Of a DNA stretch of 44,815 nt, positions 30,647-41,776 are shown piece after piece. A program made the position numbers and the translations under genes. The DNA is from a virus. The notes under the pieces are model-generated. The model was given only the letters and a program-made list of their open reading frames with translations, was not told the origin of the DNA and did not search any database. Within the stretch, counting starts at the first letter, position 1. Each line of letters begins with the position of its first letter. Location: positions 1 to 44,815 of IMG/VR virus record IMGVR_UViG_3300045988_148821; one strand, given 5' to 3'.

Positions 30647-33600
30647 ATGACTGATTACGCAAAGATTCTTTCCGACATGGAAGCTGAAGACGACGGACTG
30701 CGTGCGTCTGAAGCGGTAACGCCGGCGGGGCAGACGCCGACAATGCGCTTTACCGATACCCCGGCCACGGCCAAGGCAGTGCTGCGCTCTCCGAACCCGC
30801 AGGGCGAGACGCCGACGTGGGAGCAGATGAGCATCACGGAACGTCTGGTGAACGGGCTTGAGGGCGGTTACCACGGCCTGCAGAAGTCCCGTGCAGCGAC
30901 GGCAGCCTATGAGGCTGAGCAAGCGGCCCAGGCGGGGCTTTCCGCGTTGGTGGATGACGACGAAGACGAGTCCGTGAAGGAACTGCTTTCCCGCGACACT
31001 CAGGTGAACCGGGACTACAAGGCGAAGCAGGCGGCCGCCCGTGACCAGGCGATTTATGACTACGCCGACCTGGCGAAGAAAGACAAGGAGTATGTGACGC
31101 CCCAGGCGATTCAGAATGCTTCCGAACGGGCCAAAGGTAAGGGGTTCTGGGCTGGCCTCGGTGCTGCGGTATCTGAAATGGCCGCAGATCCATTGAACTC
31201 GGCCCTGTATCTCGGGACGTCGTCGCTTGGGGCCATTGCGCCTTACATGGCTTTGTCGGCCGCCGGCGGCGGTTTGTTGGGGGCTGCGCGCTTGACGTCG
31301 GCCGCCCGTGCCGTCCAGATGGCGACGATGTTTAAGGGCTCCTACGACAACGAACTCGGCAACTACTTGATCCAGGCGATGCAGGAAAAGGGAATCGACC
31401 TGCAGAACACGGACGCCATGCGTACGGCGCTGCAGGCGGATGACTTGGCCGAAACCTACGAGAAGGGAAAGAAGCGTGCGGCCGTGGTGGGTGCTTTTGA
31501 CGCTGTGGCAGCCTTGGCGGCTCCGATTCGCCTCAACCCCAGCAATGCCGTTCGAACCGTTCGGGATGCTGCCGGCATTCTGAAGGCAAGCGGTCTGCAG
31601 GGCGTGGATAAGGTGAAGAGCATTCCGGAAGCCTTCGGGATGGCCCGCGCTGCAACGCCGACGTCACGCGGCGGCATGTGGGGTTACAACCTCGAAAACC
31701 ACCTCACGCAGGCTGGGTTGCAGGGCGCTCTCGGTGGCGCCGGCGAAGCACTGGGTTCTCTCGCGGCCGGCGACGAGATCAACTGGGCCGACGTCCTCTT
31801 TGAAGCCATTGGCGAACTCACGTCTGCCCCGGTGGAAGTCGTCTCCATGACAGCGTCCGTGAACGCAGCCTACAACGCGCAGCAGCAACAGGCGCAGGCC
31901 GCAAAGGTACTGGGCGAGAACATGCAGAAGGTGACGGCCGCCGTAGCCGCCATGGGGACGCAGGTGAAGGACGGTCAGACGATTGCCGACTGGGCCAACG
32001 ATGTCGGCCAGGACAAGTCCGTGTTCTCGTTTGCTCAGGACTTGGTGGACGCCGGCGTTCCAGACAAGATTCGCCAGGCGGCTCCGGAACTCGCAGCCCG
32101 CATTGAGACGGCAGCTCAGAATAAGGCCGACATTGCCATCCCTGTGTCCGACGTCGTGCAGCTGGCGGCGCAGGATGAGGCAGCGGCCAACAGCCTTCTT
32201 TATGAGTCCCGCGTAGACGCCGACGGCATGAGCCCGCGCCAGGCTGAGGACTTCATGAAGAATGGCAAACAGGAAGCGGTGGCAGCCTTTGACAAGATCG
32301 TGAAGGACACGAAGCCCGACGCCGAGATGCGTAAGGCCATTGATGCCGAAGTGGACGTTATCCGCAAGCAGCTGATTGATGCCGGCACGGCCGAAGACGT
32401 GGCTGACCTGCAGACGCGCCCGTGGGCGTCCTGGCTGGCTATCCGCGCAAAGCAGACCGGATTGAGCCCCAAAGAAATCATGGGCAAAATGAACCTTCGG
32501 ATCCGCCGGCAGAAGTCGCAGAAACCCGGGCTGCAGCAGTTTATCGGTGCCAAAGGAAACGCGAGAATGGGGGACGATGCAGCGGCCGAACGCATGAGCA
32601 TTGCTGAGTCCATGGAAGACCATGGTGCTACCCCTGAAGAGATCTACCGCAAGACCGGATGGGAGCGCGGGGCCGACGGGAAGTGGCGTCGCGAAATCCC
32701 CGACCTCACCTTAAAACCCGACGTAGAAAAGATGCTGGCTATTGATCTGAAGTCGTGGGGACGTGCCGGGCAGGTGGGGGAACTGACGGAACCGCTGTAT
32801 GGCATGATTGAAGCGCCGGAGCTTTTCAAGGCACATCCGGAATTGGAAAACGTGATTGTCACTTTCGGTCACGCGGATCCAAGCGTACGGGGTGCATTCA
32901 ACGGCCGCGACATTTGGATTAACGCGGACTTCATTGAAAAGGGCGACTTTGAGGGGCTGCAGTCCACCTTGTCGCATGAACTGCAGCATTACATTCAGGA
33001 CACGGAAAAGTTTGCTTCTGGCGGATCACCGTCGGGTATGCCGGGGAAGGGGGACGTTCTTTTTGAGGATACACGTCGTTTGGCTAAGTATCGGGAGAAC
33101 GAAACGTACAAGCGATATGAGGCGCTTAGTAGATCTATTCAGGGTCGCATCATCAGTGGTGGGTCGGACTTCTTGAATAGTCCTTTGTACGACGCACTCA
33201 CAGCGCAGCAAAAAGAGATGGAAAAGTCGCCGGAAGTGGATCGGGTGCGAAAGGAACGCGACCGTCTCCGGAAGAAGTGGGGCCGCTCTCCCAACGTGGA
33301 CTACGCGATTCTCAATACTCCCGACGCGACCGAACCCGTGTGGGATATGCTCAACATGGAGGATCCGGAATTCCGCTTCCAGGAATACCGCCGTATGGCC
33401 GGGGAAGTTGAGTCCCGCAACGTCCAGAAGCGCCGGACGATGTCTCCGGAAGAACGGGCCCAGACGCCGATCAGCGCCACGGAAGACGTCCCGCGCGAGG
33501 ATCAGCGCGTAGCGTTCCAACAGCAGCTTTCTACGGCTATGCCGTCCGAGGCCTCAGTAAAGAAGGGGGGCTACCCGAATCCGCGGTTCGCGCGACAGTG

Positions 33601-41776: not shown

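Follow-up and report, generated by a model that had tools for sequence, protein, structure and literature searches.

A 3,709-residue polyvalent protein of the Bbp10 family as a probable giant internal virion protein of a temperate, BPP-1-like podovirus

Several described podovirus proteins combine large size with a place in, or a path out of, the virion. In T7, two putative membrane regions of the ejection protein gp16 (residues 243–410 and 1119–1290) flank a portion projecting into the cytoplasm; gp16-like ejection proteins span 609–1,337 amino acids (aa), and the N-terminal transglycosylase is phage-specific even among gp16 homologues (PMC8954989). In the Escherichia coli Stx phage φ24B, gp47 (2,811 aa; LPD5, LPD1, LPD38, and MuF-C) is abundant in purified virions and has been proposed to be an ejection protein (bioRxiv 10.64898/2026.04.10.717836). 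A preprint on PhiXacm4-11, a phage 92% identical to CP2, assigns gp33, gp34, and gp35 as analogues of gp14, gp15, and gp16, with gp35 (2,300 aa) being the equivalent of CP2 ORF24, and describes core density seen above the portal. The polyvalent protein of PTXU04 is required for infection. N4 gp50 has a zincin metallopeptidase (MPTase) domain in a region needed for encapsidation (Iyer et al. 2017, PMC5512222). Here, we analyze a single open reading frame (ORF) of 3,709 codons encoded by IMG/VR virus record IMGVR_UViG_3300045988_148821, whose whole 44,815-nt stretch is referred to below as the window, and compare its product (“the giant protein”) with these systems.

As judged from its sequence, the giant protein is a homologue of BPP-1 Bbp10 and a member of PHROG 9880. 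All tested family features were present, i.e., ~1,300 aa of C-terminal homology that ends the protein, homology over an N-terminal anchor (N-anchor), and a slot after a ~700-aa Bbp11-like gene and before a fibre gene. With module borders taken from homology breakpoints against 119 relatives, the ORF is laid out as follows:

30647..41776 (+): giant ORF, Bbp10-family polyvalent protein, in the position of gp16 (internal virion/ejection protein)
30647..32539 (+), aa 1–631: module A, Ala/Gly-rich N-anchor, common to essentially all relatives
32540..33493 (+), aa 632–949: module B, LPD23 and a predicted zincin-like module (Pfam, alignment)
33494..34816 (+), aa 950–1390: module C1, DUF7178 (Pfam E 1e-18, phrog_3842)
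34817..35596 (+), aa 1391–1650: module C2, predicted beta-alpha-beta repeats (AlphaFold2, AF2)
35597..35854 (+), aa ~1651–1736: Gly-rich low-complexity linker (Gly count; low predicted local distance difference test score, pLDDT, at the end of the C1+C2 model)
35855..36301 (+), aa 1737–1885: module D, compact alpha/beta domain (AF2 pLDDT >90)
36536..36994 (+), aa 1964–2116: module E, unclassified alpha/beta domain (AF2 pLDDT ~80)
36995..37651 (+), aa 2117–2335: module F, putative, divergent ART-PolyVal-like domain with a long insert (Pfam, sub-threshold)
37652..38206 (+), aa 2336–2520: module G, second predicted zincin-like HExxH module (motif conservation)
38207..41773 (+), aa 2521–3709: module H, C-terminal anchor (C-anchor) of the Bbp10 family (phrog_9880 and homology)

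Both anchors tie the giant protein to the family. The C-anchor, which extends over aa ~2400–3709, matched phrog_9880 across aa 2402–3695 (E 6e-242), and in tblastn it was 35% identical to BPP-1 Bbp10 over 91% of the query and ~23–32% identical to the other listed records, among them those of Caulobacter phage SR18, Xanthomonas phage CP2, Pseudomonas phage AF, Vibrio phages, and OANV1. Module A aligned to BPP-1-type N-termini over 530 columns (hhalign probability 99.95%, E 4e-38); Pfam labels the start of the BPP-1-type N-terminal region as LPD22, which it did not detect at the N-terminus of the giant protein. In an exhaustive HMMER search with residues 2510–3709, a threshold of E ≤ 1e-3 gave 8,880 cluster representatives and one of E ≤ 1e-30 gave 4,332, and the C-anchor match lay at or near the C-terminal end of every protein among the matches listed, most of them 1,800–4,012 aa long. 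Shorter C-anchor entries were also found, e.g., P0128 (1,310 aa, nearly all C-anchor), some of which are probably fragments. Across 93 non-redundant family proteins, the median length was 2,571 aa and the maximum 4,146, with 5 of the 93 reaching at least 3,709 aa: by length, the giant protein stands at the top end of a large family and is not unique. A giant protein in the gp16 slot is the norm for this phage group, extreme as the size is here, and all five cultured relatives (BPP-1, CP2, AF, SR18, and OANV1) encode a homologue of 2,002–2,986 aa in the same slot.

Given conserved anchors and differing middles, the family scaffold consists of two anchors around a variable middle. Among the cultured relatives, the cargo recognized by Pfam in this middle was PBECR1 for BPP-1, LPD23 for AF, and ART-PolyVal for SR18 and OANV1, with none recognisable for CP2, and metagenomic relatives carried MuF-C, ddrB-ParB, PBECR3, LPD3, SLT, and others. 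This two-anchor, cargo-slot layout of the Bbp10 family was not described in the literature searched, where, as in databases, family members are labeled “hypothetical”, “lysis protein”, or “crystallin-motif lysin”.

The giant ORF opens with an ATG and runs through 3,709 codons plus a stop without any internal stop (~409 kDa), in line with the single uninterrupted frame of the original prediction. Its 11,130 nt correspond to 24.8% of the window, i.e., the quarter of the genome stated there, and to 24.9% of the true genome, which we place at ~44,760 bp because of an exact 55-nt terminal overlap (window 1–55 = 44761–44815), which in an assembly points to a circular or permuted genome. The unusual length, and a source that is a metagenome assembly of modest coverage (“cov 4.7” in the contig name), would fit a mis-assembly, or several genes fused by sequencing errors erasing stops, as the original prediction had itself considered. 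We assign this next to no probability: the identical 3,709-aa protein is recorded on 2 contigs, one of them an ENA metagenome contig of 44,770 bp, >40 relatives of 2,872–3,682 aa and 76–96% identity each come from separate contigs, those obtained from many samples (P0001–P0042, 2,872–3,682 aa) have the same module order, and the orthologues of cultured phages are themselves at least 2,002 aa long. In addition, the ratio of non-synonymous to synonymous substitution rates (dN/dS; Nei–Gojobori method, with relative L005 as reference, ~90% nucleotide identity) was 0.02–0.24 in each of nine segments of the ORF, without frame breaks. Since there is no internal stop, dN/dS is low, and the same architecture recurs on dozens of independent contigs, the giant ORF is a real gene under purifying selection throughout.

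The cargo between the anchors comprises an LPD23–zincin-like module, DUF7178, a probable ferredoxin/ACT tandem, a Gly linker, two unclassified domains, and a putative ART-PolyVal module. LPD23 was matched at aa 643–686 above the curated cut-off (E 7e-12, 45.4 bits vs 27), so that, with DUF7178 at E 1e-18, significant domain matches were obtained, an outcome on which the original prediction had made itself dependent. Module B further contains the motif HELQH(777–781)YIQDTEKF (H777-E778-x-x-H781, Q784, E787) and a second helix, YxxxAGEVESRN (G919-E920-V-E922-S-R924-N925), and its homologues matched LPD23 in 6/6 cases and DUF6782, a “putative metallopeptidase” family, in 2/6 (best E 2e-7). Against PDB sequences, a profile hidden Markov model of module B returned nothing significant, its sole match being a weak one to a neutral metalloprotease at its HExxH region (E 0.49). 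Module G, which marks the start of the C-anchor at its junction with the cargo, has two motifs that were invariant in 19/19 homologues, STFLHESAH (H2435-E-S-A-H2439) and HELFAEGFE (H2516-E2517), and the pattern [ST]x(h)xHExxH was found in 74 of the 93 non-redundant family proteins and in 5/5 cultured relatives; its match in the PDB, to SprT/Spartan, was non-significant (E ~2). Polyvalent MPTases are characterized by a two-helix zincin signature (Iyer et al. 2017, PMC5512222), and this feature, an HExxH motif plus a second helix with a conserved Glu, is seen in both B and G, which we consider predicted zincin-like modules.

Module F owes its weak ART-PolyVal match to a long insert that splits the domain. 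ART-PolyVal was matched by 20 of 48 homologous fragments (E up to 0.01, best 1.5e-7), and residues of a putative catalytic triad were conserved across homologues: H2127 in 25/26, Y2155 in 26/26, and D/E2277 in 25/26. The ART-PolyVal active site consists of H on strand 1, Y on strand 2, and D on strand 5 (Iyer et al. 2017, PMC5512222), and the alignment pattern would place D2277 on strand 5. Module F is therefore best described as a putative, divergent ADP-ribosyltransferase (ART)-like domain of the ART-PolyVal type with its H-Y-D residues intact. We also observed that a segment made up of F, G, and the initial ~30 residues of H (aa 2120–2552) is shared, at 28–29% identity, with a different set of giant proteins of 3,357–3,993 aa (P0102–P0111). 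In the two of these that were scanned, P0105 and P0109, SLT and ddrB-ParB occur along with either PBECR3 or LPD3, and the last domain of P0105 is LPD38, which has been reported in φ24B gp47. These findings suggest that modules have been exchanged between two giant virion protein families.

The remaining modules are conserved and confidently modeled, with few leads as to their chemistry. C1 is a mainly alpha-helical domain of ~400 aa with ~38 invariant residues, including S1084-P-Q, E1097-R, K1224, R1226, FYNN 1228–1231, T1242, D1244-T-H1246, R1300-E, and QSITWE 1303–1308. An AF2 model of C1+C2 built from a 14-sequence alignment reached a pLDDT of 82 and a predicted template modeling (TM) score of 0.82, with pLDDT mostly 84–98 for C1 and ~80–90 for C2. 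In a Foldseek search of the PDB, this model yielded only weak matches to tandem ferredoxin-fold/ACT pairs (E 0.008–0.3, probability up to 0.99), and no match attributable to C1 was present among the 50 listed. The output gives no query range, and we assign these matches to C2 because only that half has beta-alpha-beta repeats: C2 is probably, from the model, two tandem ferredoxin/ACT-like alpha/beta domains. It is followed by the Gly-rich linker noted in the original prediction, for which we counted 23 Gly in residues 1601–1700.

Module D has invariant residues H1751, Y1792, E1802, and E1839 and an AGFDGY motif, and ten of its homologues lacked any Pfam match even at E ≤ 10, while module E is characterized by the motif LPDGTMLDGSGRHWG...GRQVDH. 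A joint D+E model matched nothing in the PDB at E ≤ 0.001 (Foldseek); 4 of the top 9 weak matches were ART-fold toxins (ParT, RES; E 0.3–2, TM score 0.35–0.40), from which D may possibly have an ART fold, a lead and no more. Among the viral structures of BFVD, the same model matched “large polyvalent protein associated domain” proteins (E 6e-15 to 4e-8, no query range given), and therefore the D fold, the E fold, or both recur in polyvalent proteins. The C-terminal half of E also begins small proteins carrying PBECR1, and a word-index search with D+E found 8 proteins only. When MAFFT placed D fragments onto F, we considered D as a compact paralogue of the ART module, and rejected this at an hhalign probability of 0.5%; the pairs B–G, D–E, D–C1, and E–F were likewise unrelated. 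NCBIfam and PADLOC scans of the whole giant protein returned nothing.

Comparison of close relatives indicates that the cargo turns over quickly, through gain, loss, and exchange of modules, whereas the two anchors are strongly constrained (dN/dS 0.05 for module A, 0.02–0.10 for module H, 0.02–0.10 over the two). Module B is a clean 318-aa insertion, present in P0001–3 and exactly missing from relatives with 94–98% identical flanks; in DNA alignments, an insertion of ~990 nt in the window faces ~7 nt in relatives. For module D, a patch at 35667–36516 (aa ~1674–1956) had no DNA alignment with L003–L006 and L009, which are otherwise 88–92% identical. Protein identity of D to these close relatives was ~41–42%, and its synonymous divergence (dS) was saturated at 2.08, compared to 0.29–0.61 in the other eight segments. 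The saturated dS and the unalignable patch together imply allelic replacement of D by recombination. The shuffling of segments between phages that the original prediction had raised is thus documented by one indel (B) and one replacement (D), in genes otherwise 88–92% identical. A separate case is P0025 (3,038 aa), with an in-frame deletion relative to aa 674–1295 that joins “...DDAAAERM” to “GLSPREMQSITWE...” and takes most of B and most of DUF7178, including many invariant residues; it could be a natural variant or an assembly artefact.

We also noted a short string at the module borders. The pattern [AGS][FLY][NQEA]Q occurs 7 times in the giant protein against 1.6 ± 1.3 expected, with six occurrences within ~10 residues of an independently defined border:

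32528–32539: motif at aa 628
33512–33523: motif at aa 956
35564–35575: motif at aa 1640
36515–36526: motif at aa 1957
37004–37015: motif at aa 2120
37823–37834: motif at aa 2393

The three sites inside AF2 models (956, 1640, and 1957) fall in low-confidence linkers, and similar strings precede the same modules in homologues. The motif was defined post hoc and then tested on the 93 non-redundant family proteins, with close relatives excluded: it was enriched 1.6-fold across the family (204 vs 130), but showed no significant association with BLAST breakpoints (33 vs 25.5 ± 4.7) and was inconsistent in cultured phages. Possible readings are a processing site, recombination microhomology, or a shared linker cap, and we do not claim it as a finding.

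Next, we consider the gene neighborhood, assigned by PHROG scans, which provides the context for a role in the virion:

20231–21985: portal (PHROG)
22308–23036: scaffold-position gene, 242 aa (phrog_458 “protease”, E 5e-15)
23047–24033: major capsid protein (PHROG)
24527–25147: tail tube A (PHROG)
25144–27825: tail tube B (PHROG)
27882..28481 (+): 199-aa internal virion protein, in the position and of the size of T7 gp14 (phrog_418 “internal virion protein”, E 3e-11)
28497..30635 (+): 712-aa protein, in the position of T7 gp15 and BPP-1 Bbp11 (BLASTP against Bbp11)
41834..44089 (+): 751-aa tail fibre protein (aa 1–128 match phrog_1640, 5510, and others, tail-fibre/tail)
2525–2791 (+), 1357–1653, 1935–2312, and 5028–6317: downstream genes

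The order tube A, tube B, 199 aa, 712 aa, giant ORF, and fibre is that of T7 genes 11-12-14-15-16-17 and, gene for gene, that of BPP-1 bbp14-13-12-11-10-9. From this shared order, the giant ORF is the positional equivalent of T7 gp16 and BPP-1 Bbp10, which bears out the internal-virion-protein position originally assigned to it, including its location between the 712-aa protein and the tail fibre (28497–30635 and 41834–44089). The partner proteins are close in size to their T7 counterparts (199 and 712 aa vs 196 aa for gp14 and 747 aa for gp15). The 712-aa protein matched both ends of Bbp11 in BLASTP (aa 1–274, E 8e-8; aa 477–646, E 1e-3) and remained unaligned across the central part, where Bbp11 has an SLT domain (Pfam, aa 325–406); it had no Pfam match, no PHROG match, and no SLT. 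Pfam likewise found no SLT in the giant protein, and with SLT missing from both, this phage is left without anything recognisable as a virion-associated peptidoglycan hydrolase. From gene position, the N-terminus of the 751-aa fibre may be comparable to the adaptor region of T7 gp17.

Other features of the window concern the phage as a whole. A tyrosine integrase at 5028–6317 indicates that the phage is temperate. A 619-aa tailspike gene is split across the window ends (44092–44815 joined to 56–1191), and an apparent 394-aa ORF at 7..1191 is its C-terminal part; Pfam on the ENA contig identified a pectate-lyase fold and a Peptidase_S74 chaperone domain in the tailspike. Genes downstream of it encode a holin (Phage_holin_3_3), an M15 peptidase endolysin, and an 88-aa member of the Sequestin family (PF21825), with the integrase farther along. 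In contrast to BPP-1, no reverse transcriptase of a diversity-generating retroelement was among the Pfam matches on the ENA contig, and no tRNA gene was found within the window. Deposited phages included none with near-identical DNA. In a collection of species-representative genomes, the sole match was a 67%-identical C-anchor on a 4,476-bp contig (L015, CAVIES010000152.1) binned with an Anaerovoracaceae metagenome-assembled genome, probably a mis-binned phage fragment.

Taken together, we describe the product of the giant ORF as a polyvalent protein (sensu Iyer et al. 2017) of the Bbp10 family and as the probable giant internal virion protein of a temperate podovirus that is BPP-1-like and has T7 architecture. 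The polyvalent part of this description is near certain: LPD23 is above its cut-off, multiple domains of disparate predicted activity are joined in one polypeptide, and the gene is encoded among virion genes, between internal virion proteins and the fibre. The original prediction of a polyvalent-type protein is thereby upheld by LPD23 and DUF7178 in Pfam, and it gains from the sub-threshold ART-PolyVal match and the two modules with a zincin signature. We consider it probable that, in full, the protein is an ejection protein serving as the chassis for an array of polyvalent cargo and that it enters the cell together with the DNA. Under this reading, a few copies would be packaged in the capsid core, as for T7 gp16, and at infection the chain would thread through the portal and tail after its 199-aa and 712-aa partners. 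Hydrophobic patches of both anchors would then insert into the inner membrane, so that the segment between them, i.e., the cargo, would face the cytoplasm in the manner proposed for the middle of T7 gp16. The ART and other modules may act there on host targets (defence, transcription, or translation factors) before phage gene expression, and the zincin modules probably process the polyprotein, either before packaging or after ejection. The 242-aa gene in the scaffold position, if its phrog_458 match means a prohead protease, is a further candidate for processing the giant protein. The cytoplasmic placement of the cargo would follow from patches at 196–401 and 3371–3574 that parallel those of gp16. 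The N-terminal ones lie at aa 196–214, 278–296, and 383–401, and what the original prediction called a hydrophobic C-terminal region comes down to two moderate patches (aa 3371–3415 and 3552–3574) in a ~1,300-aa module that is otherwise hydrophilic. We also count in favor of this reading a very low Cys content (8 in 3,709 residues).

However, several observations weigh against this interpretation. We infer packaging and ejection only from synteny and analogues, and Kyte–Doolittle peaks over both patch regions (aa 196–401 and 3371–3574) are modest, at 1.2–1.7. The C-anchor profile had an hhalign probability of 0.4% against T7 gp16, a search of the PDB with this profile recovered no gp16 chains and nothing significant, and the whole giant protein showed no similarity to any solved structure in the PDB (phmmer). 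Pairwise BLASTP detected no similarity between the 199-aa protein and T7 gp14, or between the 712-aa protein and gp15. As for the cargo, the ART-PolyVal (PF18760) match of module F is below the cut-off (E 0.001–0.0035, 18.6–20.2 bits vs 31.2) and covers only profile positions 9–49 of 140, and neither B nor G, in the query itself, matched MPTase-PolyVal or any peptidase family in Pfam. The fused ejection or channel module of the original prediction is retained through gene position and analogy only, the profile comparison with T7 gp16 being negative.

A purely mechanical ejectosome or core protein would account for part of these data. Its modules would be spacers, assembly or maturation aids, or envelope enzymes rather than cytoplasmic effectors, e.g., zincin modules clearing a path for the DNA by cleaving envelope proteins or the peptide stems of peptidoglycan. 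With SLT present in Bbp11 and T7 gp16 and absent from both the 712-aa partner and the giant protein, some module may have to breach the envelope, and the authors of the φ24B study propose that the metallopeptidase domain of gp47 has a role at the peptidoglycan. Module G, being nearly universal in the family, is core-like rather than optional cargo, and D, E, C1, and C2 are without assigned chemistry. We nevertheless regard this as unlikely, as the same slot in relatives holds ART-PolyVal, PBECR RNase-like, ddrB-ParB, and MuF-C domains, predicted modifiers of nucleic acids or proteins with no obvious envelope role, and as cassettes that turn over this fast among near-identical phages are typically conflict genes rather than structural parts. 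Alternatively, the giant protein could be a late, unpackaged polyprotein that the zincins self-cleave into soluble proteins, with only the C-anchor, if anything, entering the virion. Two conserved HExxH modules sit at module borders, P1 DdrB is processed before packaging (Iyer et al. 2017, PMC5512222), the [AGS][FLY][NQEA]Q string occurs at 6 borders, and near-C-anchor-only entries such as P0128 exist, although these may be fragments. Yet effectors acting late need no fusion to a structural-module gene, the N-anchor beyond the cargo is equally conserved, which speaks for the whole chain being used as one unit, N4 virion RNA polymerase and φ24B gp47 are reported to be packaged, and the junction motif failed the family-wide test, so that self-cleavage of this kind appears distinctly improbable.

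The database names of relatives would make the protein a “lysin containing a beta/gamma-crystallin motif” (the GenBank label of Bbp10 homologues), i.e., a lysis protein. This is hardly credible, given that no crystallin, lysozyme, amidase, or SLT family was found in the giant protein or in the Bbp10, CP2, AF, and SR18 orthologues, that the gene lies in the virion module and not in a lysis cassette, and that separate holin and M15 endolysin genes of the phage lie downstream. Returning to the polyvalent cargo array, its most far-reaching version would see the whole Bbp10 family as a “cargo-slot ejectosome”, in which the DNA-ejection protein is also the delivery vehicle, its middle, turned towards the cytoplasm, being loaded with any number of effector cassettes by recombination. 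Module G (and module B) would release them by zincin cleavage at φ-[FYL]-x-Q linkers, a string seen at 6 module borders here, and at least DUF7178 and D would be new enzyme families; in this full form, we consider the proposal tentative and rather doubtful.

Neither the class nor the family is new, and the idea that a polyvalent protein serves as the ejection protein of a podovirus has already been put forward in a 2026 preprint; the giant protein is a heavily loaded new member of a large, known, and barely studied family. Its interest stems from the prediction that polyvalent proteins are the earliest phage weapons to arrive in the cell, although very few of them have been tied to a defined virion part. 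With ~8,900 representatives sharing a fixed chassis of two anchors in the gp16 slot, cargo can be read by subtraction, providing a practical route to pre-expression effectors and anti-defence candidates, and DUF7178, D, and E stand out as conserved, confidently folded domains without assignment. Near-identical gut-metagenome relatives that differ by one cassette represent natural isogenic pairs for cassette function, the chassis suggests a route to engineered phages that inject chosen proteins, and the misleading “crystallin motif lysin” and “lysis protein” labels are corrected.

Among known systems, the closest are Bbp10 of BPP-1 (2,052 aa) and its PHROG 9880 orthologues, gp25/gp35 of CP2/PhiXacm4-11, AF gp16, SR18 gp040c, and gp16 of the Octadecabacter virus OANV1. 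They occupy the same slot as the giant ORF, after tail tube B, 1–2 small internal virion proteins, and a ~700–950-aa protein. In 4/5 cultured relatives a tail fibre or tailspike gene follows directly, whereas in AF two holin genes come first. They share with the giant protein an N-anchor, a C-anchor, the HExxH at the C-anchor start, and cargo in between. The giant protein differs in being 1.2–1.9 times longer, in carrying six or seven cargo modules vs one detectable (none in CP2), and in having a 712-aa partner without SLT, unlike Bbp11. With polyvalent proteins at large (PMC5512222), it shares many unrelated enzyme-like and LPD domains, including LPD23, the putative ART-PolyVal, and interspersed zincin-like modules, while DUF7178, D, E, and C2 fall outside the domains recognized by the Pfam families of that paper. 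As searched, the paper makes no mention of BPP-1, gp16, LPD23, or a fixed two-anchor scaffold.

More distant parallels are offered by other giant virion proteins. Similar to the giant protein, φ24B gp47 is a giant polyvalent protein of a podovirus, and giants ending in LPD38, a domain that Pfam did not find in the giant protein, share its ART-like and HExxH segment (aa 2120–2552); no Escherichia phage was among the tblastn matches listed for the C-anchor. N4 gp50, the virion RNA polymerase (~3,500 aa), and the Bcep22-type giant virion proteins are very large, packaged in podovirus heads, and injected. The original comparison with these two holds as an analogy and not beyond it, since the giant protein has no RNA polymerase domain or similarity to N4 gp50 (Pfam, NCBIfam, and PDB), and no Burkholderia phage was among the matches listed for either of its tblastn halves. 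We thus treat N4 gp50, φ24B gp47, and the Bcep22 giant as analogues, not as homologues shown. Likewise, the giant protein may work like T7 gp16 (1,318 aa) without being demonstrably homologous to it. It does not have the N-terminal transglycosylase of gp16 or its basic C-terminal pentapeptide, ending instead in ...FSGKIDE, and is 2.8 times the largest size given in PMC8954989. Still, both are the product of the third and largest gene of an ejection operon, located between tail tube B and the fibre, and both have two hydrophobic regions near their ends around a large central portion.

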